In this document: in pieces, positions 10,496 through 47,919 of the stretch
Layout: every line of letters starts with the position of its first letter
Numbering within the stretch: the first letter of the stretch is position 1
Assembly (NCBI GenBank): GCA_023898405.1
Contig: CP060221.1
Span: forward strand, 1,719,381-1,783,380
Source of the DNA: Myxococcales bacterium
GTDB lineage: Bacteria > Myxococcota > UBA727 > JABDBI01
Reading direction: 5' to 3'
Length of the DNA stretch: 64,000 nt
The notes under the pieces: model-generated
Told to the model about the DNA's origin: nothing
The model's input: only the letters and a program-made list of their open reading frames with translations
Databases searched by the model: none
Position numbers and translations under genes: made by a program

Positions 10496-11413
10496 ATGAA
10501 AAATATAATAATTTTAACATGTTCGATCTGGTTTGCAACAAGTATTGCGTATGCAACCCAGATTAATTTTAAATTTATTGGTTTTGAACAATTTAGCAAA
10601 AATCCAGCACATAAGATTCTGGAAGTTAATTGTTCGAATAATACAACTACAACCATTGGAGATTTAAAAGAACAATTTTTTTATAGTTATAACATATCTC
10701 CTAGTGAAACCATTATCCTTATTGCCCACGAGAAATTAGAGGATTCAGCCCTTGTTTCAAGTGTAAACATAGCTATGCAAGGTGAAGTAATGGTTGTTAG
10801 GGATACAAGTGGCGGTATAAATTGTTTTAGTGAACACTATTCCAAACTTAAATCCGCTATTGAGGCTAATAATATAATCTACGCTGAAAATCTCTCACAT
10901 TCGATCGAACGTTCTCCAAATTTTTCAGACACTGAAAAGCGAATTGCAAAGAAATTGACTGAAAATCTATTGAAAATTAATAATAATTCAAACAATGAAT
11001 CGCCTGATGATGAATTAAGTAGGCTTTTGAATTTTATAGAGAAAAAAAATGTCATCAATTTAGATCCTGCTTTGCAAAAAATCTACAATAATTTTAAGCT
11101 CTGTATCGAGTATAGAAACGTTCAATCAGCTAAAACCATTATTAATTCAGCTAAAAATAATAAGTCCTTTTCCATTGAACAAAAAATAGAAATTGAAAGT
11201 TGGATGAATGGCAGCATTATTGAAAATAATTCAAACTTCCAGCCGCTCACTGAAAAAAATAAAACACAAATATTGTTAGAAAAATTTAATGATTTGAAAG
11301 AGAATAAAAGCAATGTTGATGAAGCAATCGATATTGCCTTACAGCTTTTAGATCAAGATGACTTAAACCTTATGGAAATGGAGAAGATTCGGGATTGGAT
11401 TAATTCAATCTAA
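10496..11413 (+). CDS. Hypothetical secreted protein
   Basis: 305-aa ORF with a signal-peptide-like N-terminus (MKNIIILTCSIWFATSIAYA), Asn/Ser-rich, no recognisable domain. Confidence 0.5.
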   Translation: MKNIIILTCSIWFATSIAYATQINFKFIGFEQFSKNPAHKILEVNCSNNTTTTIGDLKEQFFYSYNISPSETIILIAHEKLEDSALVSSVNIAMQGEVMVVRDTSGGINCFSEHYSKLKSAIEANNIIYAENLSHSIERSPNFSDTEKRIAKKLTENLLKINNNSNNESPDDELSRLLNFIEKKNVINLDPALQKIYNNFKLCIEYRNVQSAKTIINSAKNNKSFSIEQKIEIESWMNGSIIENNSNFQPLTEKNKTQILLEKFNDLKENKSNVDEAIDIALQLLDQDDLNLMEMEKIRDWINSI

Positions 11414-11439
11414 TCTGCAAAAACTAATGCATTAATTAA

Positions 11440-11477
11440 AGCCTGGTTGCCTGATTACAAGCCACCTGGCTTTTTTT
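11440..11477 (+). terminator. Putative rho-independent terminator after 10496..11413
   Basis: Imperfect hairpin AGCCTGGT...ACCTGGCT followed by a T7 run (11471-11477). Confidence 0.4.
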
Positions 11478-11499
11478 GTTATAAAACTCTCTGCATCAC

Positions 11500-11800
11500 T
11501 TAACTTTCTCATCTTGCCAAGTGATAATGCCTATCTAAATGTAGGTTCAAGTTTGAATGTAGGAGTAAGCACCCAAGCGGCAGAACGCCTGAAAGGACAA
11601 AAGGGATTTGTACCACAGATATTTCGTTGGGCAGTTGAAAGAACTTTTGCTTGGTTGAATAGAAACCGGCGCCTGGTTCGTAACTATGAGAAGAGTACAA
11701 GGCAACAGGAATCAATGAACTACATCGCTCATGCAAGCTTGTGCATCAAGCGATTGGAAAAGTGGCTTACCGCCTAAATTTTGATTTATTTTACAGCCTC
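11500..11800 (+). mobile_element. Partial IS5-family element (3' ~300 bp), same family as the full copy at 28633..29537
   Basis: ORF 11514..11777 matches the C-terminal ~85 aa of the transposase at 28656..29471 (VGVST.AERLKGQKGFVPQIFRWAVERTFAWLNRNRRLVRNYEK). Terminal repeat TTTGATTTATTTTACAGCCTC ends at 11800, followed by TAA. Confidence 0.75.
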
Positions 11801-13685
11801 TAAATCATGATTCAGACAATATAAAATTTCCTTAGCGTACGTTTCCGTCCTAGCCTGAAAAAAATTTGTTCTCTTCTTCTAGACATTTACGACTGTGCTT
11901 ACTGCATAGTCCCCCCGGCCTGACGGTCGGGGGAGCGCTTAGAAATTATAATTTTTTAAAAAAATTCCAATCAAGGAGTCAGCAAACTCAAGGTTTAATT
12001 ACTTATAGTCGCCGTGAAATTTCTTAACCAAAACTTCCTTACGCATTATTATTGTTGTTATTGCCTTTATTGGATGAATGAATAATAACAATGTTTTCGC
12101 TTTCCGAAGCCTTCTCGCGCTTATCAAATAAATAACGAAGACGCTTCAACATTTCTGGTTTTTCAATTAAAACATTTTTTCCCATTGATACAAAATTATG
12201 CATTTTTTCCATCGCCGAGTGCCAATTAATTTCTGGATGAGCAGATATCACAGGATATTTTTTCCAGGATTGATGGAATTCTACTAGATTTTTTTGCAGG
12301 TCAACGGGAATAGTTGTCCATATCAGCACAAATTCTCTGGCAATCCTTAGAGCAAGAGCCTCTATATTTTTTTGAACTGATTTTTCTCTTACGATTCGAT
12401 GTATTACTGACTCTCCCCCATCATTTTGGTCTTGCAACAATTTCAATAGTGATTCTTCATCGGTATTAAAAATAGAATTAATCTGCTTTTCTGATAGCTG
12501 GTAAAGGACACTGTTTAAGATAATTAGCAGCTCTTCTATTAATACCCATTTAAGATCCTTATTAACAAACATCTGCAACACATTATAGCCAACTTCGTTT
12601 TTAGTAACTGATAGATTGTTTAACGATTGTTCAATAGACTCAGCATTATTTAAGTGTTCTGACATTGACTCAAAAAGTTGAGCTTTCTCTTCTTCTGACA
12701 ATTCATATGCCGCACTAATCGCTTTTTTTACTTTATTTTCAAATAGAAAAAACAAATAGCTCGCCATTTCATTTCTTGATATTTCATCTTGATTATTCAG
12801 TGCTATTCCAATTGGCCGAACATAGTTATCAAGAGAAAATAGATATGCCATTCCTGGCAATACACCATTGGCCTCAAAGCTCTCCAATATCTCTTGACGC
12901 TGGCCCTCTAGAAAGACTTTAACGACGTCAATTTTTCCCATACCGACTGCAATGGAAATAACAGAATTGCGATTTTGATCTTCTGCTGTTACATCAGCGC
13001 CATTATCCAAAAGAATTCGTACAATTTCTTGATCATCATTCGATCCATTTTTAAAATTAAGGACTGCAAATCCAAGCGGCGTTATACCTGATTTGCTAGG
13101 TTCATTAATGTTGAAATATTTTTTATTTCGATCATTTAAAAGTAATTCCATTGCGCGTTTTTGTTTTTTTAACGCAGTAAAATGAAGTGCGCTTAATCCC
13201 TTGTCAGTAGTTTTGGCACCGATATCAATTTTCGTATTGAGCAACAACAGCTGCAATTTATCTGTATCACTAAGCCCAGATGCTATGTGGATAGGACGAA
13301 TACCATTCTTTTGTATTGCTAAGTTGACATCAGCACCAACACTAATCAAGTGATTAGCGTAATAGTCATCATCTATTGTAAGTGCGTAATGCAGTAGTGA
13401 ATATCCCGCTAATGGGCTGTTTAGAACCTGTAGGAATTTTTCTTGATTGAATTTTGTTTCAATATAGTCAACCAATTTCTTGAACTCATTTTTCCTATTC
13501 TCTTTGATTGAGTAAAAAAGCACTTCTACATTGCTACTATTTTCGTTAGTCGGATCAAAAATGGTTTCTGGCCGATCCAGCAGATATTTCATAAGCTCCC
13601 AGCTTCCTGTTCTCATAGCTAAAAGCAATAATGTTTTGTCACATAGTTGAGGGCTTAAATTCTCAGGAGCACCTATTTTTTTGTT

Positions 13686-14401
13686 GGGGCTGTAGTAGCT
13701 AAGCCCAATTAAGGGTAAGCTACTTCAATGTATAAGAGACGCAGCCGTTTAACAGTGCGCCAGCAGAGCGAACTGATAAAATTATTTGTTGCTGGTGTAA
13801 CCGCCAGAGCAGCATCAGAACTGGTTATTATTCAATCTAATACAGCCAGTAATTTCTTCTTAAGGTTAAGAAAATTAATAGCCAGCAAACTTCCAAGCTA
13901 TGACTTAAGCGGAGAAATTGAAGTAGATGAAAGTTATTTTGGCGGAGTTCGAAAAGGCAAGAGAGGACGTGGAGCTGGAGGTAAAGTAGCTGTTTTTGGC
14001 CTTCTTAAGCGAGGTGGCAAGGTTTACACAGCCATCATTCCTAATGCAAAAACAGAAACTCTTCTGCCTATTGTAGAAGAGAAAGTTCTTCCGGACAGCA
14101 TAGTTTATACAGATACCTTTAAATCATATAATGCCTTAGATGTATCTGCATTTCACCATATGCGCATTAATCATTCCAAGCTGTTTGCTGATAAGCAAAA
14201 CCATATCAATGGGATTGAGAACTTCTGGAACCAAGCCAAACGCAATCTGCGTAAGTTTAATGGGATAAAACAGGATAATTTTTATTGGTTTCTTAAGGAA
14301 TGTGAATGGCGCTTCAACGGAGGCAATCACCAACAGCTTCTAAAACAGCTAAAATACTGGTATAAACACACTAAACATTAACGCTTAGCTACTACAGCCC
14401 C
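13686..14401 (+). mobile_element. IS1595-family insertion sequence, apparently intact
   Basis: Perfect 19-bp terminal inverted repeats GGGGCTGTAGTAGCTAAGC (13686..13704) and GCTTAGCTACTACAGCCCC (14383..14401), flanked by an 8-bp direct duplication TTTTTGTT (13678..13685 and 14402..14409). Confidence 0.85.
13728..14381 (+). CDS. IS1595-family transposase
   Basis: 217-aa ORF with the typical IS1595/ISXO2-like basic Gly-rich segment (DESYFGGVRKGKRGRGAGGKVAVFGLLKRGGKVYT) and C-terminal NHSKLFADKQNHINGIENFW region. Confidence 0.85.
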   Translation: MYKRRSRLTVRQQSELIKLFVAGVTARAASELVIIQSNTASNFFLRLRKLIASKLPSYDLSGEIEVDESYFGGVRKGKRGRGAGGKVAVFGLLKRGGKVYTAIIPNAKTETLLPIVEEKVLPDSIVYTDTFKSYNALDVSAFHHMRINHSKLFADKQNHINGIENFWNQAKRNLRKFNGIKQDNFYWFLKECEWRFNGGNHQQLLKQLKYWYKHTKH

Positions 14402-39019: not shown

Positions 39020-39452
39020 ATTGTCGTAGAAAAGTAATAAGCCGGGTTCTGTCCGCGCTGTCATTGCTGAACAGCGATGGATGGACATTCATCTGGGAGC
39101 ATTGTTGCCAATGCCCTCGAGCGGTCTCCTTAGAAATCTATCACGCGGGCAGCGTGTGGAACTTTCGTCCCAGATTTCCCCATGACCTTTCACCGGGTGG
39201 GGTTTACCGTGCCGCATTTGTCTCCAAATGCGCGGTGTGCTCTTACCACACCGTTTCACCCTTTCCGCTTGGTGATCCGATACCCAGAGGAGACGAAACA
39301 TCGGTCGCAAGTATCGGCATAGCGGAGGTTTATTTTCTGTGACACTATCCTTCAAGTCGCCTTGACCGGCTGTTAGCCGGCACCGCGCCCTATGGTGCCC
39401 GGACTTTCCTCCAAGTGCAAATGCACTCAGCGTCCACCTCTTTTTCTACGGC
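39020..39452 (-). ncRNA. rnpB: RNase P RNA, bacterial type A
   Basis: Minus-strand sequence carries the universal blocks GGAGGAAAGTCCGGGCACCATAGGGC, GGGTGAAACGGTGTGGTAAGAGCACACCG, GGCACGGTAAACCCCACCCGG and ACAGAACCCGGCTTAT; P1 pairing CGTAGAAAAAG (5') with CTTTTCTACG (3') sets the ends. Boundaries +/- 10 nt. Confidence 0.9.
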
Positions 39453-40796: not shown

Positions 40797-41687
40797 ATGT
40801 TAATCTTAAGGCTAAGCGCTATTTTATTTGTTTTGTTGTGGAATGCTTCCGTGAAAGCCTCATGCTGTGCATCGGGATCGAGCGGTGGCATTGGCCGTTT
40901 GTTGCCTTATGAAAGAGCACTGATAGAGCTTTCGCATGACGCGCACTATATTGTTGGTCAGTTTAACGAAAGTACTCGTTTTAGGGCGGGAGTAGCTGAG
41001 CCATTGCCTGTGTGGCAATTCAATCATGAGCTTCAAGTGATGACTCGCCTCGCTCCATTTTTCCTTCCTTTCATTAAGCTGCCTGTCCGTACAAAAATAA
41101 GTTCGAAAGAGACTATTTCTGCCTTAGCAGATCTCAGTCTGGGGGCACGCTGGCCCATTGTGAAGGAAAACTATTTTTTGCATTGGCCTGGATTAAACTT
41201 ATTTTCGACATTACAGATGCCTACAGGAACGAGTAGCGAAAAAAATGCTGAGTTTTCAGCAAATGGGTCCACAGGGGCGGGCGTTTGGCTTTTGAGTTTG
41301 GGGGCCAACGTAGAAAAAAGTCTTGGGAAATTTTTATGGACATTTGCTTATACCTACAGCTTTGAAACACGACTCTTTAAAAAGCATGGTTATGCTCACG
41401 GTCCTACGCATGCTCCGTCGATAAATGTATCTTTTCCGTTAATTGAAATGCACCAGCTGAGCTTTGGCTTGAGCGCTGTCTTTAATGAACCCTTTCGTTA
41501 CGATGCTAAACGAGTGCGCAATTCTTCCAATCGTAAGATAAGTCTTAGTAGTGTCTATGCATGGAAATTTCATAGTCATATGACACTTAACTGTTCTCTG
41601 GGGGCTGACATGCCGATTTATGGTTTAGGAAAAAACACCAATAGCGAAATTTTTATGCGCTTAGGTATGCGCGTTGGAGTGTTTTAA
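40797..41687 (+). CDS. Hypothetical outer-membrane beta-barrel protein (putative)
   Basis: 296 aa; signal peptide, alternating amphipathic strands, C-terminal Phe (MRVGVF). Start abuts the trxA stop. Confidence 0.45.
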   Translation: MLILRLSAILFVLLWNASVKASCCASGSSGGIGRLLPYERALIELSHDAHYIVGQFNESTRFRAGVAEPLPVWQFNHELQVMTRLAPFFLPFIKLPVRTKISSKETISALADLSLGARWPIVKENYFLHWPGLNLFSTLQMPTGTSSEKNAEFSANGSTGAGVWLLSLGANVEKSLGKFLWTFAYTYSFETRLFKKHGYAHGPTHAPSINVSFPLIEMHQLSFGLSAVFNEPFRYDAKRVRNSSNRKISLSSVYAWKFHSHMTLNCSLGADMPIYGLGKNTNSEIFMRLGMRVGVF

Positions 41688-42271
41688 TGCAAAAGATATC
41701 TTTGCTCTTGCTAATTTTTTTGACCGGATGTCAAGCTGCCTATCATGTAAAACTTGATCGTGTGCGCTCTGTTGAGCTCGACACTCCATCGCTTGCTTTA
41801 GAGGCAGCGGATGGTTCGTTTCATCGTCTTTCTAAGCTCTATAAAAAAAACCGTGGAACTGTTTTGGTTTTTTGGCAAACAGCATGTCCGTGCGTAAAAA
41901 GATATCAAAAGCGAGTCATCGATCTAAACGAGCGTTATCGGGTTCATGGAATAAAATTTCTACACCTTTCGAGCAATACTAATGAATCCTTTGAAAGGGT
42001 AAAGAATGAATACAACAAACGTCAAATTCCCCTTACTTTGATGCGTGATAATAATGCTGTGATAGCAAAAGCCTTGGGAGCTAAGGGAACACCCACAGCA
42101 ATTCTTATTGATCAAAGAGGGCGTGTTCAATTCATGGGATGGATCGATAACGAGCGTGATGTTGGTGAATCTGGGCGTATTGCTTATTTGGAAGATGCCC
42201 TCGAGCAATTTATAGGCGCTAAACCCATCAGCGTGCCAACATCTCCCATGTTTGGCTGTGCGATTTACTAG
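41687..42271 (+). CDS. Thioredoxin-fold thiol-disulfide oxidoreductase lipoprotein (TlpA/redoxin-like)
   Basis: 194 aa; lipobox LTGC; thioredoxin-fold motif VLVFWQTACPCV. Confidence 0.65.
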   Translation: MQKISLLLLIFLTGCQAAYHVKLDRVRSVELDTPSLALEAADGSFHRLSKLYKKNRGTVLVFWQTACPCVKRYQKRVIDLNERYRVHGIKFLHLSSNTNESFERVKNEYNKRQIPLTLMRDNNAVIAKALGAKGTPTAILIDQRGRVQFMGWIDNERDVGESGRIAYLEDALEQFIGAKPISVPTSPMFGCAIY

Positions 42272-43378: not shown

Positions 43379-44794
43379 ATGGGACATCTAAACGATGGAG
43401 CTAGTAGGCAATTACGTCGAAGAATCCAACAAATTGAATGTGAAATTGTGCGCCTACTCTGCGATGAACCTGATTGGCTTGATACTCATGATAGCGCGTC
43501 TTTGCGGTGGGCGTTGTCGCTTGCCCGTTTAACACGAATTAAAAATCCTGACATTTCTTTAGGGCATGCCAGCGATCGTTATCGAGCTGAATTGTATGCC
43601 TTACTTTCTGAAGCATTGCTTAACGGGATCAACAAAGAAAAAATTAAAGAGCTTCTTCCGAGTATTACCGTATTGGCTAAAAAAGAGCGCAGAGATTTAT
43701 TGTCGTTGTTTTCACTGCTCACTCCGGAAATTTTGGACGAAGCAGTACGAAGACGGCCTTTGGCATTGACTATGAGCGGTGGAGGAGGAACTGCATTTGT
43801 TTTTGTTGGTGCTCTTTACGCTCTTGAAGAAAGCGGCATTACTCCAAGTGTCATCAGTGGCTCATCGATGGGAGCAATATTGGGAGCATACCGAGCTCGA
43901 ACCAAGCACTTTTCTTTTGATGGTGTTGATGCGCTAGTAGAGAAAACTTCATGGGGAAAAATTGCACAGAGTTATTCGGGGCCAAGCCGGTTTGGCGTAC
44001 CTGCCACCTTCAGGTTATATTTGCGGGATGTAGTGGGGCACGAATTTGAATACGAAGACAGGTTCATGCGTCTTAAGGATCTTGAAATACCTTTAAGGGT
44101 ATGTGTAGCAGGTCTTTGCTCTCAGTCAAAAGAATATGATGAAGAGTTGGCTGCTTATGCGCATGCGTTTGATGAAAACCCCAAAGAAAAAAGTAGGAAA
44201 AGTAAATCTGTTATTTCTCTAATTTTGGATTTCGCTCAAAAACCTCTCAAAGCTGTTTATCTTGGAGGAGATGAACTGACAGCGGAGTTTGATGTACTTG
44301 ATGCCATAGGTTTTTCGGCCGCTATTCCAGGTATCTTTCATTATGACATTATGAGAAACGACCCTCGTATGATTGCTTTGGTGAGCAATCTTTTTGCTAA
44401 AGAAGGTATTTTTCGCTTAATTGATGGTGGTTTTGTCGACAATTTGCCTATGCAGGAAGCTATCAATGCTGTGGCCGAGGGGATATGCGATGGCTACGAT
44501 CCATTTGCTTTGGCGCTCGATAGTTTTAGTCCAGGATTTAATCGGCATATTCTTTTTTATCCCCTGATGCGTTTTGCAACAGAAAATAGCAGAGTAGGGC
44601 ATGAAGCTTCAGACTTAACTATTTTTTTTCGGGAAGTACTTTCTCCTATAAATTTGGTACCTACAAAGAAAACTTTTCAGTACGCCATTGATCATGGCCA
44701 TAGGGAATTTTCGGCTCATCTCCCTTTTATTCGTAAAATGGTTGGTCCTATCCCAGATCCAAGTTGGCTTAAAGAAAGCCTGATAAAGAATTAA
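43379..44794 (+). CDS. Patatin-like phospholipase with N-terminal helical extension
   Basis: 471 aa; glycine-rich loop LTMSGGGGTAF, nucleophile GSSMGA, catalytic Asp motif IDGGFVDNLP. Confidence 0.8.
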   Translation: MGHLNDGASRQLRRRIQQIECEIVRLLCDEPDWLDTHDSASLRWALSLARLTRIKNPDISLGHASDRYRAELYALLSEALLNGINKEKIKELLPSITVLAKKERRDLLSLFSLLTPEILDEAVRRRPLALTMSGGGGTAFVFVGALYALEESGITPSVISGSSMGAILGAYRARTKHFSFDGVDALVEKTSWGKIAQSYSGPSRFGVPATFRLYLRDVVGHEFEYEDRFMRLKDLEIPLRVCVAGLCSQSKEYDEELAAYAHAFDENPKEKSRKSKSVISLILDFAQKPLKAVYLGGDELTAEFDVLDAIGFSAAIPGIFHYDIMRNDPRMIALVSNLFAKEGIFRLIDGGFVDNLPMQEAINAVAEGICDGYDPFALALDSFSPGFNRHILFYPLMRFATENSRVGHEASDLTIFFREVLSPINLVPTKKTFQYAIDHGHREFSAHLPFIRKMVGPIPDPSWLKESLIKN

Positions 44795-44885
44795 ATTTTT
44801 TTTTAAAACAAGTTCGTTTCAAACTCAACAAAACCATTAGTGTACAGCGTAAAATAAATACGCTCACTTTTTGCTCGGGGGGCAA

Positions 44886-45743
44886 ATGGTTTTCGATTTT
44901 GATGATTTTGATGTGAGGGAGCGTTTCTACTCAATAGAAGAAAAAACCGAACAATTGCGAATGGAGTTGGATACACTCAAGCCCGAAGAACAACATGCAT
45001 TTAATGAAATTTGTGCTCAAGCATATATTTTTCACGATTCAGCGCTTGAAGGTTTAGTGGTGAGCGGTGATGAAATAAGTTCTGTTTTTAGCACCGATAC
45101 CGATGCTCAGTATATTCGCAGCAGGGTACTGCAGGAAATCCGTAATCATCGAAAAAAACTGCAGGAATTTATTAATCATGCGGCCAGAGTAAGGCATAAC
45201 AGTGCAGTCTATCGTTCAGCTGAGGTTACCATAGAGAATATTTTGGCAACTCACGAAGCTTTATTTGCGAGCGTACCAAGAAAAGAGCCTGGCCAACTGC
45301 GTTGTCAAACTCCTCTTCATATCGCTTATTTTCATGAACTCTGTGAGCCAGAAAAGATTAAAGATCGTCTTTTAGAGCTATGTGAAAAAACCAGAGATCC
45401 TGAATTTCGTACACAGCATCCCATTAATCAGGCGGTGCTCTTTCATTTTTATTTTATGCAAATTTTTCCCTTTCTAGATGGATGTGGCAAGGTTGGGCGT
45501 CTTTTTATGAATAGTTTTCTCATGCAAGGCGGCTATGAGCTAGCGATTATTCATGGAAGTGATCGGCAGCAATACTATGAGACCCTCAAGGAAGGTCCTG
45601 AATCATTGCGACTTTTACTACTAGACAGTATTGATGCTGCACTTGATTCTCGGGCTAATTTTATTAAAGAAATCGACCTTTCCCGTTCAACTGGCCGAAT
45701 TTTTTATAAAAAAACAAAAGAGTATGAGCGAGCAGTCCCTTAG
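44886..45743 (+). CDS. Fic/DOC-fold protein with non-canonical active-site motif
   Basis: Fic-like helices (AQAYIFHDSALEGLVVSGDEIS; HPINQAVLFHFYFMQIFPFLDGCGKVGRLFMNSFLMQGGY). Canonical HPFx(D/E)GNGRxxR is replaced by FPFLDGCGKVGR (45465..45500). ATG at 44886; ORF track begins at TTG 44871. Confidence 0.6.
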   Translation: MVFDFDDFDVRERFYSIEEKTEQLRMELDTLKPEEQHAFNEICAQAYIFHDSALEGLVVSGDEISSVFSTDTDAQYIRSRVLQEIRNHRKKLQEFINHAARVRHNSAVYRSAEVTIENILATHEALFASVPRKEPGQLRCQTPLHIAYFHELCEPEKIKDRLLELCEKTRDPEFRTQHPINQAVLFHFYFMQIFPFLDGCGKVGRLFMNSFLMQGGYELAIIHGSDRQQYYETLKEGPESLRLLLLDSIDAALDSRANFIKEIDLSRSTGRIFYKKTKEYERAVP

Positions 45744-45827
45744 TTTATAAAATGTTAAAACAGCTATTGAAAAATAGCTTGCATACTCTAAACTCAGCAG
45801 GAGTATGGTAATGACAGGATAAAACCA

Positions 45828-47036
45828 ATGTTTAAAAAAATTTTTTTTAGTATGTTCTTTATTGTAGGACTATCAGCTTGTGGGGATTGGCCCTTAGGAA
45901 GCTCTAAGTCCAGTGGTGACAGCAGTACAGGCAATGAACAAAAAAATTCTGAAAACCAAAAGAATAGCAAAAATAATCGGCAATCTCAGGCCGGCTCCTA
46001 TAATATCGCTGTTGCACCAGGAGGAGGGCTTAATGCTTATACCTCTTTGTATTTAAGCAAAAAATTTGAACAGGCAGCAGGAAAAAAAATCCCTGAGCTT
46101 TTTGACCTTTATTGGGGGCTCTCTGGCGGTGCTTTAGCGGCAAGTTTATATATGACTGGCCAAGGTGATAAGGCTTTAGAAAATTTTAAAAGAGATGTCG
46201 ACAAAGCCTTTCCGACCAAAGATTCACTTATAACTAACGCCATGCCTTTGCTCTTTGGCGACCAGGGACAGATTGATGCTTTGAAAAGGTTAGCGCTGGA
46301 TGAAGATGGTCAACGAAGACAAGCATTTGAAAAAGCATTAAAAGCAAATATAGGAGAAAAGAAATTTTCTGATCAAGGACAGGATCGCTTTGTTTTTGTT
46401 GCTAGTGTTGATGCTAATCCTTATTGTTATGGCGCTCCAAGCATTAAACTTCCCCAAATATGCTCCCATAGAAATCCTGCAGGAGCGCGTGTGATAGATG
46501 GCATAGTAAATAGCTCAAATTTTCAGTTATCCGTAAGCAGTTTGTTAGGTGGATTTGCCAATTTAATACCACGAGATATTACATCTCTAAGCCTCTTTAA
46601 ACGCCAAGCACTAACAGTAGCTGCTAAGCAAGTACCTATCGTTGACGGATTTCTTATTCGCAAAGATCTGAGCGATGGTAACTCACCTTTGCCTTTGGTG
46701 ATTGATTATCTTTTGCAATTTAAAAATCAAAATAATAGCGAACATAATATTGTGGTTTTTGATAATGGTTCTGGATCAATCGCTGATTATAAAAATCAAA
46801 AATTTCGTGATGATATCGGAATTAAAAATGGTTATGCACAAATTAAAAGCGGTGGCGTTGTGATCAATATCTATTTATTGGACATGAATGTGACAAGAGC
46901 CCAATTTGATAGTTGGATATTTGATCAAAGTGACAAGCACTGGGCCGATGCAGAGCAGATGGTCGATCAAAGTGTTAGTGGATCTATAAAACAACTTTTT
47001 GATAGGGCTATCGATGCTGTAAAGAAAAATATGTAG
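45828..47036 (+). CDS. Lipoprotein with divergent patatin-like / GxSxG hydrolase motifs
   Basis: 402 aa; lipobox GLSAC; motifs VAPGGGLNAY and WGLSGGALAA in patatin-like spacing; low-complexity Ser/Asn/Gln linker after the lipobox. Confidence 0.5.
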   Translation: MFKKIFFSMFFIVGLSACGDWPLGSSKSSGDSSTGNEQKNSENQKNSKNNRQSQAGSYNIAVAPGGGLNAYTSLYLSKKFEQAAGKKIPELFDLYWGLSGGALAASLYMTGQGDKALENFKRDVDKAFPTKDSLITNAMPLLFGDQGQIDALKRLALDEDGQRRQAFEKALKANIGEKKFSDQGQDRFVFVASVDANPYCYGAPSIKLPQICSHRNPAGARVIDGIVNSSNFQLSVSSLLGGFANLIPRDITSLSLFKRQALTVAAKQVPIVDGFLIRKDLSDGNSPLPLVIDYLLQFKNQNNSEHNIVVFDNGSGSIADYKNQKFRDDIGIKNGYAQIKSGGVVINIYLLDMNVTRAQFDSWIFDQSDKHWADAEQMVDQSVSGSIKQLFDRAIDAVKKNM

Positions 47037-47060
47037 TGGCGATATAGTTTTTATGAACAA

Positions 47061-47082
47061 AACCAGCCTCAGGCTGGTTTGT
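47061..47082 (+). terminator. Putative terminator hairpin
   Basis: AACCAGCC-TCA-GGCTGGTT perfect 8-bp stem followed by TTGTC and an A/T-rich run. Confidence 0.4.
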
Positions 47083-47106
47083 CATAAAAAATTATAAAGG
47101 AAGACT

Positions 47107-47919
47107 ATGAACAAATTAGCATTAGTTCTTGTTTTGCCATTTGTGTTTGTAGCTTGTGGCCAAGATCATGAATTTACTGAAACAAAAGATATATCTTTGG
47201 AAGATGGAGCTAGAATCGAAGAAGATATATTCAAAAATGTCGATAAAGATCCTCAGTCAATCACCAAGCCTGTTGTGCCTAAGCCAAACTTAGAAAAACA
47301 AAAATCTGAACAGAGAAAAAATGAACTCAAAGCTTTTCAAGAAAAGCTTAAAGAAGAACTTAGTAAGTTAGAAGCTAACAAAATAGCATACGATTGGGCC
47401 AAAAAGCATGAAATTTTTTTTAAAGCTGATGCGGAAAGTGCCAATGGCCGTAAAAAAAATGAGATATTACAAAATATAGGAAAGACCGAAAATTTTGTTG
47501 TGACGCTGGAGAGCGCAGTAAGTAATGCAGATTTTCCAAAAACCAATGCTGATTGGGTGAAATTGATAACAGATCCATCGAAAAAAACACATCCGCATCG
47601 CCAATTATATGATGAATTTCTTGGGGACTATCAACCCGGAGGCAATCCTGATGTTAAGTGGGATTACGAAACCATTTTAAAGCTTGCAAAAGATAAAGTA
47701 AAAAGAGTGAAAGACATCTTAGACAATCCTTATCTTTCCAAAGTAAGAGATTACGCTACGCTTAGGGAAGAATTTCAAAAGCTGTTGACCACAGATAAAA
47801 AGGATTTGGCTGAGAAGTACAAAAAAATTGATGAAAGAATAAAAGATATTGATAAAGAGCTTCGTTATCCAGACATCAGTGATTTGGTGTTTAAGCGTTT
47901 GATGGAAGCGATAAAGTAA
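47107..47919 (+). CDS. Hypothetical Lys/Glu-rich lipoprotein
   Basis: 270 aa; lipobox FVACG; highly charged, likely coiled-coil; no recognisable domain. Confidence 0.5.
   Translation: MNKLALVLVLPFVFVACGQDHEFTETKDISLEDGARIEEDIFKNVDKDPQSITKPVVPKPNLEKQKSEQRKNELKAFQEKLKEELSKLEANKIAYDWAKKHEIFFKADAESANGRKKNEILQNIGKTENFVVTLESAVSNADFPKTNADWVKLITDPSKKTHPHRQLYDEFLGDYQPGGNPDVKWDYETILKLAKDKVKRVKDILDNPYLSKVRDYATLREEFQKLLTTDKKDLAEKYKKIDERIKDIDKELRYPDISDLVFKRLMEAIK

Follow-up and report, generated by a model that had tools for sequence, protein, structure and literature searches.

Patatin-like genes on both sides of a gene for a Fic-like protein raise the question of whether such an array is a set of paralogs that a bacterium deploys against host membranes or whether its members have separate histories. 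The array considered here spans positions 43,379–47,036 of a stretch of 64,000 nucleotides (hereinafter, the window) from the chromosome of an uncultured member of Myxococcota with a low guanine-plus-cytosine (GC) content of ~39%, the proteins of which are named in NCBI under 'Myxococcales bacterium'. Exact-sequence matching assigns the window to GCA_020430645.1, and the longest contig on which these genes occur measures 2.5 Mb. Two patatin-like genes, denoted PAT1 and LIPO, flank the Fic-like gene on the same strand, and a third, PAT3, lies 26 kb from this cluster. An earlier note on this DNA, made from the sequence alone, interpreted the genes as a cluster of patatin paralogs of the kind found in intracellular pathogens that remodel host membranes. 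The analysis reported here leads to a different answer: the three genes probably encode patatin-fold serine hydrolases of independent origin rather than a paralog cluster, and PAT1 together with the Fic-like gene probably represents an ancient pair. The catalytic activities, cellular locations and substrates given below are those predicted from sequence. The finding itself is ordinary in that it adds members to known families, one of which, LIPO, belongs to a small, sequence-divergent subfamily missed by current annotation.

Three patatin-fold proteins that are not recent paralogs

All three patatin-like genes, as well as the Fic-like gene between PAT1 and LIPO, were found where the earlier note had placed them (Table 1), with the addition that PAT3, described there as a third secreted patatin, is encoded on the minus strand. 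PAT1 and PAT3 are recognized by the Pfam Patatin model. LIPO, which the note had taken for a divergent lipoprotein form, scores 24.3 bits against this model, under the gathering score of 27.7 and over the N-terminal half of the protein only, so that its status as a patatin called for an independent test.

The alignments bear out the earlier identification, which hinged on the match of the motifs to the patatin catalytic dyad. The Ser of the GxSxG elbow is present in PAT1, LIPO and PAT3 and aligns with the motifs of the solved structures of PlpD, CapE and Pat17, respectively. The catalytic Asp aligns in all three proteins as well, in the form of D349GG in PAT1, D263GG in PAT3, and D273 followed by Gly or Ala and a variable residue in LIPO. 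The alpha/beta patatin fold was recovered along with the dyad. The oxyanion motif GGGx[RK]G is canonical in PAT3 only; the corresponding segments of PAT1 (GGGGTA) and LIPO (GGGLNA) have the glycines without the Arg or Lys.

The part of the earlier interpretation that fails is paralogy. In pairwise BLASTP comparisons, the PAT1–PAT3 and PAT1–LIPO pairs yield E-values of 0.13 and 6.2, and the LIPO–PAT3 pair reaches 8e-6 through the N-terminus only (signal peptide, linker and first motif). With all pairwise similarities insignificant or marginal, recent paralogy among the three patatins was rejected. The closest solved relatives differ, too: PlpD, followed by VipD and ExoU, for PAT1; Pat17 for PAT3; and, distantly, the patatin/CapV/CapE side of the superfamily for LIPO.

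Table 1. Coordinates of the features discussed in the text (window numbering)
Feature	Positions	Strand	Observations
PAT1, patatin-like serine hydrolase, 471 aa	43379-44794	+	Pfam Patatin 72.3 bits, E 7.9e-20
PAT1 oxyanion motif SGGGGTAF (aa 133-140)	43775-43798	+	G134-G137 invariant in both family alignments
PAT1 nucleophile elbow G-S-S163-M-G	43859-43873	+	S163, M164, G165 invariant; aligns with PlpD GTSMG
PAT1 catalytic Asp motif D349-G-G-F-V-D-N-L-P	44423-44449	+	Aligns with PlpD DGGMVDNIP
PAT1–Fic spacer, 91 bp	44795-44885	+	Conserved blocks and invariant GGGGGG (44877-44882), 3 bases before the Fic ATG
Fic-like protein, 285 aa, FICD-related fold	44886-45743	+	Pfam Fic 53.3 bits (threshold 24)
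Inhibitory-helix-like motif HDSALEG	45033-45053	+	Aligns with FICD YHTVAIEG (Glu234)
Degenerate Fic motif IFPFLDGCGKVGR	45462-45500	+	Canonical form IHPFxDGNGRxxR
LIPO, divergent patatin-fold lipoprotein, 402 aa	45828-47036	+	NCBI: 'hypothetical protein'
LIPO lipobox L-S-A-C18	45870-45881	+	Cys preceded by G/A/S after hydrophobic N-terminus in 17/18 family members
LIPO oxyanion-type motif PGGGLNAY	46017-46040	+	G65, G66, N69, Y71 invariant; aligns with CapE DGGGAKGF
LIPO nucleophile elbow G97-L-S99-G-G	46116-46130	+	G97, S99, G100, G101 invariant; aligns with CapE GTSTG
LIPO catalytic Asp motif V-D273-G-F	46641-46652	+	D273 invariant, then G or A; aligns with CapE IDGG
LIPO family-specific motif F311-D-N-G	46758-46769	+	Four residues invariant in family alignment
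Stem-loop after LIPO, perfect 9-bp, AAACCAGCC-TCA-GGCTGGTTT	47060-47080	+	Core of a longer imperfect palindrome, ~47043-47096
Predicted lipoprotein, 270 aa (lipobox FVAC)	47107-47919	+	No family match; downstream of LIPO
PAT3, lipoprotein with plant-patatin/CapV-like domain, 407 aa	15984-17207	-	Pfam Patatin 82.3 bits, E 6.8e-23
RNase P RNA, bacterial class A	39022-39449	-	291 bits, full length
Hybrid PKS-NRPS gene, large (KS-AT-DH-KR-ACP-C...)	1-6087	-	Starts near 6087, exits the left end of the window
Ankyrin-repeat protein, 529 aa	12039-13628	-	Repeats match Legionella Ank effector models
IS1595-family transposase	13728-14381	+	Adjoins the ankyrin-repeat gene
TLC-like membrane protein, 407 aa	17532-18755	+	Divergent neighbour of PAT3; Pfam TLC ATP/ADP transporter 68 bits
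Secreted 296-aa protein, then AhpC/thioredoxin-like lipoprotein	40797-42271	+	First protein without family match; ATGA overlap
Lipase_3 (class 3 lipase) domain protein, 633 aa	55361-57262	-	Unrelated to patatins

PAT1 is a slowly evolving, phylum-wide protein

PAT1 consists of an N-terminal helical domain of ~125 amino acids (aa), the patatin domain, and a C-terminal extension of ~100 aa. The N-terminal domain is conserved in the family, with a characteristic LRWALSLAR motif; a match among solved structures was found neither for this domain nor for the C-terminal extension. Within the catalytic Asp motif, D349, G350, G351, D354, N355 and P357 are invariant in the family alignments. The structure model of PAT1 (predicted local distance difference test, pLDDT, 89) has PlpD as its top Foldseek match (E 1.9e-8), followed by CapV/CapE, iPLA2-beta, VipD and ExoU. 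Neither a signal peptide nor a transmembrane segment is predicted from the PAT1 sequence.

Full-length orthologues of PAT1 are distributed across Myxococcota. In the JGI data, these orthologues carry the label 'predicted acylesterase/phospholipase RssA', and PAT1 scores 16.7 bits against the NCBIfam RssA model, the cut-off of which is 272. Read from the sequence, the profile of PAT1 is that of a core cytoplasmic enzyme and not of a host-targeted effector. The protein would be an active lipid acyl hydrolase with a Ser163/Asp349 dyad, predicted to act on the cell's own lipids.

A probable ancient pair formed by PAT1 and the Fic-like gene

Relatives of the Fic-like gene were collected by a scan of one genome per species (at least 549 stretches), with the 80 best loci listed. 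Nearly all of these 80 bear Myxococcota-type names, including Archangium, Cystobacter, Anaeromyxobacter and Polyangiales. Linkage was counted over the 66 species loci that offered 5 kb or more of sequence on the upstream side, in which PAT1 was sought within 8 kb upstream of Fic. A full-length PAT1 orthologue precedes the Fic-like gene in 27 of the 66 loci, always on the same strand, with a gap of 90–3035 bp, and the two genes are directly adjacent in several unrelated lineages (L008, L013, L028, L049, L073, L082 and L084).

The succession of PAT1 and then Fic persists while the flanking genes change between clades. The order in Myxococcia is GlnE>PAT1>(class IV aminotransferase)>(AAA)>Fic>Nfo>DHH>class V aminotransferase, with these flanks seen in Archangium and Anaeromyxobacter; in the intermediate clades, it is RNase T< PAT1>(aminotransferase)>Fic>TPR, and in the clade of the window, RNase T< PAT1>Fic>LIPO <PolA. 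In Archangium, Anaeromyxobacter and related genomes (L021–L085; for example, L025, positions 951–11958), the genes form a long co-directional array, which runs from GlnE through a small open reading frame (ORF), PAT1, the class IV aminotransferase, an AAA ATPase, the Fic-like gene, AP endonuclease 2 and a DHH phosphoesterase to the class V aminotransferase.

Comparison with two relatives of the window shows that PAT1 and the Fic-like protein evolve more slowly than PolA. In L003, the identity to the window is 76% for PAT1 and 78% for Fic, compared with 57% for PolA, 60% for RNase T and 38% for LIPO; in L088, the respective values are 86% and 88%, compared with 80%, 69% and 48%. A rate below that of PolA is the opposite of the behaviour typical of effectors.

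The spacings between successive genes around the Fic-like gene (91, 84 and 70 bp) agree with the ~70–90 bp given in the earlier note, which took these spacings, together with a hairpin after LIPO, to indicate adjacent genes rather than one operon. PAT1 and Fic may be such adjacent genes or may be co-transcribed; their spacer, when aligned among six relatives, contains the conserved TTTTTnAAACAA, CAACAAAAyCAT and GGGGGG-N3/4-ATG, the remainder being unconserved. The conserved blocks could represent a promoter, a processing signal, a regulatory element or a ribosome-binding site at an unusual distance. Scans for promoter and terminator consensus sequences were uninformative (13 hits compared with 12.1, and 5 compared with 3.9, in shuffled sequence). 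The alternative TTG start of the Fic-like gene at 44871 was rejected; the ATG at 44886 is conserved in the relatives together with the upstream GGGGGG, as is the encoded N-terminus, MxFDFDDFD.

Taken as a whole, PAT1 and the Fic-like gene would constitute an ancient, vertically inherited and slowly evolving pair of genes for cytoplasmic proteins, and the two may be functionally coupled.

A Fic-like protein without the catalytic histidine

The profile of the Fic-like family matches human FICD over positions 10–240 with an E-value of 2.9e-25. In the alignment of hidden Markov models, IHPFIDGNGRTSR of FICD stands opposite IFPFLDGCGKVGR of the window, with Phe at the position of the catalytic His, Cys or Ser at that of the Asn, and Lys at that of the first Arg. 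The sequence of the window at the site of the HxFx(D/E)GNGRxxR motif is FPFLDGCGKVGR, which lacks the catalytic His. This replacement is a feature of the family wherever it was examined: the His position is occupied by Phe or Tyr throughout the alignment of 24 homologues and in each of the recovered loci. The family motif can be written as [IVA][FY]P[FYW]xxxSG[KR]x[GA]R, to which there are a few exceptions at the Ser or the Lys/Arg position; the first Arg of the Fic motif is replaced by Lys in most loci and retained in some, and the Asn position is taken by Ser or Cys.

Other parts of the fold are retained. In the HDSALEG motif, H, A, L and G are invariant across the loci, and the Glu is either Glu or Asp; the motif agrees with the inhibitory consensus (S/T)xxxE(G/N) in the E-G and departs from it at the first position, where Asp (Glu in some loci) stands instead of Ser or Thr. 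The family also keeps the GxxR flap region and the HPxNQA helix, and 43 columns of the 24-member alignment are invariant. No export signal is predicted for the Fic-like protein.

The His of the Fic motif is the general base of AMPylation and is also required for deAMPylation by FICD. With Phe or Tyr in its place, the Fic-like protein is predicted not to AMPylate but to act by binding, and it is probably not an AMPylase. With a fold of the FICD type, the flap and the Glu of the inhibitory helix retained, it would serve as a binding or regulatory protein. A toxin–antitoxin interpretation of the FicTA type was considered and rejected, since no small antitoxin ORF is present, the inhibitory motif is part of the Fic-like protein itself, the catalytic His is lacking, and the protein is extremely conserved. 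Searches of the literature on this family, on Fic pseudoenzymes, on the myxobacterial Fic/patatin pair and on small-genome Myxococcota found nothing specific.

The persistent linkage of a His-less FICD-like family to a conserved patatin suggests a possible functional module, a reading that we put forward as tentative and rather unlikely. In its fullest version, PAT1 and the His-less FICD-like protein would be an undescribed two-gene module of Myxococcota, in which the pseudo-Fic regulates the cytoplasmic patatin lipase or reads a modification; separately, a new patatin subfamily of the outer membrane would be founded by LIPO and used at the cell surface by a reduced-genome, possibly host- or prey-dependent lineage. 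Under this scheme, the dead Fic fold, with its flap, inhibitory Glu and part of the anion-binding loop, would bind a ligand or a protein and thereby control membrane-lipid turnover.

LIPO, a divergent lipoprotein probably added in the window lineage

LIPO-like sequences are rare. Only 18 clusters were found among 5.8 billion proteins, none of which has a precomputed Pfam domain. A profile search of 1.84 billion representatives returned 14 proteins at E<=1e-30, the other matches being weak and confined to the N-terminal motif region. The AlphaFold model built on the family alignment (pLDDT 84; predicted template modelling score, pTM, 0.83) has CapE and CapV as its best Foldseek matches among solved structures, and in a profile-to-PDB search, the GGG, GxSxG and Asp motifs align to those of CapE. 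The oxyanion motif contains an invariant Asn where patatins usually carry Arg or Lys. By these fold and motif comparisons, LIPO is a real, if divergent, patatin-fold protein with a predicted intact Ser-Asp dyad.

The slot between Fic and polA is likewise occupied by LIPO in L003, L006, L086, L088 and L089, and more distant members of the family are located elsewhere. LIPO evolves fast, as its low identity to the orthologues in L003 and L088, given above, attests. The Fic–LIPO spacer is unconserved and varies between 84 and 284 bp, and Fic is followed by terminator-like hairpins in relatives; hence, LIPO probably is a separate transcription unit that was added in the window lineage, and for this gene the earlier view of adjacent genes rather than an operon is plausible. 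The hairpin that the earlier note placed at 47061–47082 is real, and its extended fold (-22.3 kcal/mol, z = -4.9) is more stable than any of 200 shuffled sequences. A simple terminator scan did not call this hairpin, which is possibly a terminator. On this view, LIPO is a lineage-specific lipoprotein that evolves fast, was inserted between Fic and polA, and would be transcribed from signals of its own. The lipoprotein gene downstream of LIPO was considered as a member of the cluster and dropped; it is not found at the same position in relatives. In L003, a 588-aa protein with a HECT domain (eukaryotic ubiquitin ligase) is encoded at 6536–8302, two genes further downstream than the LIPO orthologue; nothing equivalent is present at that position of the window.

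PAT3 and the predicted envelope location of the two lipoproteins

PAT3 displays the motifs DGGGIRG, GTS119TG and D263GG. Its best solved relative is the potato patatin Pat17 (E 1.7e-26), followed by CapV. Against the NCBIfam CBASS_lipase model (NF041079; CBASS, cyclic oligonucleotide-based antiphage signalling system), PAT3 scores 155.5 bits and LIPO 20.8 bits, with a cut-off of 200. PAT3 is surrounded by two small secreted ORFs, the IS1595 transposase, the ankyrin-repeat protein, the TLC-like transporter and a PNP oxidase, and LIPO by Fic, the 270-aa lipoprotein and PolA. No CD-NTase or other cyclase gene was found among the neighbours of either.

Both LIPO (LSAC18) and PAT3 (VSSC25) start with a hydrophobic signal peptide that ends in a lipobox and is followed by a low-complexity linker. 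In lipoproteins of Myxococcus xanthus, Lys at position +2 specifies the inner membrane and Ala at +7 the matrix (PMC3222651). Neither signal is present in LIPO (CGDWPLG) or PAT3 (CSDAPNS), which, by default, places both proteins tentatively in the outer membrane. M. xanthus itself encodes several patatin-like proteins, two of which were detected in the outer-membrane fraction (PMC3222651), so that the presence of several patatins is not diagnostic of pathogens. LIPO would, then, be an envelope-anchored lipase with a Ser99/Asp273 dyad, probably in the outer membrane, and PAT3 would be another lipoprotein lipase of the envelope, which belongs to the plant-patatin/CapV branch and is encoded at an unrelated locus. 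A host- or prey-directed role of these two proteins is possible.

Other genes in the window

The ordinary chromosomal genes of the window include polA, uvrC, recR, RNase P RNA, xanthine dehydrogenase and acyl-CoA dehydrogenase. At the left end is a large hybrid polyketide synthase–nonribosomal peptide synthetase (PKS-NRPS) gene. Among the ORFs examined in the window, there are no secretion-system genes. The juxtaposition of eukaryote-like (ankyrin) repeats and a mobile element, near PAT3, is unusual in Myxococcota. The TLC-like transporter next to PAT3 matches the NCBIfam nucleotide (NTP/NDP) exchange model weakly (50 bits, cut-off 387); should this protein really exchange nucleotides, energy parasitism would be a conceivable way of life. 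The Lipase_3 protein is the fourth predicted lipolytic enzyme of the window. The pair of genes at 40797–42271 is kept upstream of RNase T in L006, L007 and L088, is preceded by a thioredoxin gene in L001 and L088, and may constitute an envelope redox module.

Weighing the explanations

Several observations weigh against three hydrolases of independent origin with PAT1 and Fic as an ancient pair. In PAT1 (GGGGT) and LIPO (GGGLN), the usual Arg/Lys of the oxyanion motif is missing, so that the chemistry may differ from that of classical patatins. Applying the sorting rules of M. xanthus to the lineage of the window is an extrapolation. The ankyrin-repeat gene and the TLC-like transporter near PAT3 fit a host-associated lifestyle, as does the HECT-domain gene close to LIPO in a relative. 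Finally, PAT1–Fic linkage is not universal because PAT1 was not found upstream in 39 of the 66 loci, mostly those with ~62% GC, including metagenome-assembled genomes with Polyangiales names; where linkage exists, it could reflect the conserved housekeeping order that extends from GlnE to the class V aminotransferase rather than a shared function.

This last point is the core of the alternative that we take most seriously, although we consider it doubtful: PAT1 and the Fic-like gene would be neighbours by inherited gene order only, functionally unrelated, with the Fic-like protein a decaying or structural remnant. It gains from the fact that, in Myxococcia, both genes sit in a long co-directional array of unrelated housekeeping genes, often with one or two genes between them, and from the loci where PAT1 is missing upstream. 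Inherited order fits less well with the survival of the pair, its order and strand unchanged, in three types of clades with wholly different flanks, and with its direct adjacency in several lineages. Nor does the Fic-like protein look like a decaying one: with 78–88% identity where PolA has 57–80%, and with its 43 invariant columns, it is one of the best-conserved proteins of the region.

The proposal implied by the earlier note, that the patatins serve a bacterium living inside or in association with a host as effectors that remodel host membranes, in the manner of VipD/VpdC of Legionella, Pat1/Pat2 of Rickettsia or ExoU of Pseudomonas, appears improbable. A genome that is seemingly small (longest contig, 2.5 Mb) and low in GC for Myxococcota, the neighbours of PAT3 and the HECT gene listed above, the fast evolution of LIPO, which is frequent in surface or host-facing proteins, and the weak sequence matches of PAT1 to VipD, ExoU and VpdC all lean this way. 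However, the VpdC model (NF043045) scores 23.5 bits against a cut-off of 1000 and covers only residues 130–169 of PAT1, that is, the GGG and GxSxG motifs, and the weakness of the TLC match (50 bits against 387) diminishes the argument from the transporter. PAT1 is a slow, phylum-wide orthologue that resides in a housekeeping context in free-living myxobacteria and has no export signal; LIPO and PAT3 are predicted to be tethered to the bacterium's own envelope, an unusual form for a translocated effector. The lack of secretion-system genes among the ORFs examined in the window also counts against effectors, and the PKS-NRPS, xanthine dehydrogenase and acyl-CoA dehydrogenase genes point to a metabolically capable bacterium. 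For PAT1 and the Fic-like protein, then, the pattern of an intracellular pathogen does not hold, given the missing export signals, the slow evolution and the linkage of the orthologues in free-living myxobacteria; it might apply to the two lipoproteins only.

Antiphage defence, with PAT3 and/or LIPO as CBASS effectors of the CapV/CapE type and the Fic-like protein as one of the SoFic or PDC-S04 type, is highly improbable and was rejected. It is suggested by several similarities: PAT3 matches CBASS_lipase with 155.5 bits and the PADLOC phospholipase effector models with 177 bits, the top Foldseek matches of LIPO are CapE and CapV, and the Fic-like protein matches the SoFic and PDC-S04 models of PADLOC. 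Yet, PAT3 falls under the equivalog cut-off, and its best solved relative is the plant patatin, not CapV; no cyclase is encoded near PAT3 or LIPO; the lipoprotein signals would put both proteins outside the cytoplasm, where the cyclic-nucleotide signals arise; and the Fic-like protein lacks the catalytic His and is encoded in a vertically inherited, phylum-wide housekeeping block rather than in a variable defence island. Independent origin of the three hydrolases, with PAT1 and the Fic-like gene as an ancient pair, thus is the explanation we prefer.

Implications and comparison with known systems

LIPO, listed in NCBI as 'hypothetical', can henceforth be annotated as a lipoprotein of the patatin fold, the Ser-Asp dyad of which is predicted to be intact. 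More generally, the presence of several patatins beside a Fic gene is insufficient by itself to mark an island of pathogen effectors. If PAT1 and the Fic-like protein work together, they would offer a testable example of a Fic pseudoenzyme and a new mode of regulation of a patatin lipase, for which genetic tools exist in M. xanthus and Anaeromyxobacter.

The effectors ExoU, VipD and VpdC share the patatin fold and the dyad with PAT1, with weak sequence matches (E 1.6e-4 to 6e-4) and, for the PAT1 and LIPO models, matches at the level of the fold. The likeness of PAT1 to these proteins is limited to the catalytic core and does not include the effector-specific C-terminal domains. No chaperone or secretion-system genes are encoded nearby among the ORFs examined, and the pattern of conservation is the opposite of that of an effector.

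The known proteins closest to PAT1 are the passenger domain of PlpD from Pseudomonas aeruginosa and the RssA/COG1752-type proteins, which have the patatin fold in common with it (Foldseek template modelling (TM) score 0.67, normalised to PlpD). The GGG-type oxyanion loop, the GxSMG elbow and the DGGxVDNxP motif of PlpD and PAT1 align. Unlike PlpD, PAT1 has no autotransporter part (POTRA or beta-barrel) and no signal peptide, and its patatin domain is framed by the N-terminal helical domain and the C-terminal extension described above.

Pat17 and CapV/CapE are closest to PAT3 and, more distantly, to LIPO. In contrast to CapV/CapE, both PAT3 and LIPO possess a lipoprotein signal and a low-complexity linker, have no cyclase partner, and score under the CBASS cut-off. 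LIPO further differs from Pat17, CapV and CapE in the Asn that replaces the oxyanion Arg/Lys, the D-G/A-x in place of DGG, and the invariant FDNG.

The closest known relative of the Fic-like protein is human FICD/HYPE, a class II Fic protein with an N-terminal inhibitory helix. The match between the two takes in the xxAxEG of the inhibitory helix, the flap region with GxxR, the HPxxxA helix, and GxxxRLLMN, with which the Fic motif ends. They differ in that the Fic-like protein has no TPR domain and no membrane anchor, and in that it carries [FY]P[FY]xxxSG[KR]x[GA]R in place of HPFx(D/E)GNGRxxR.

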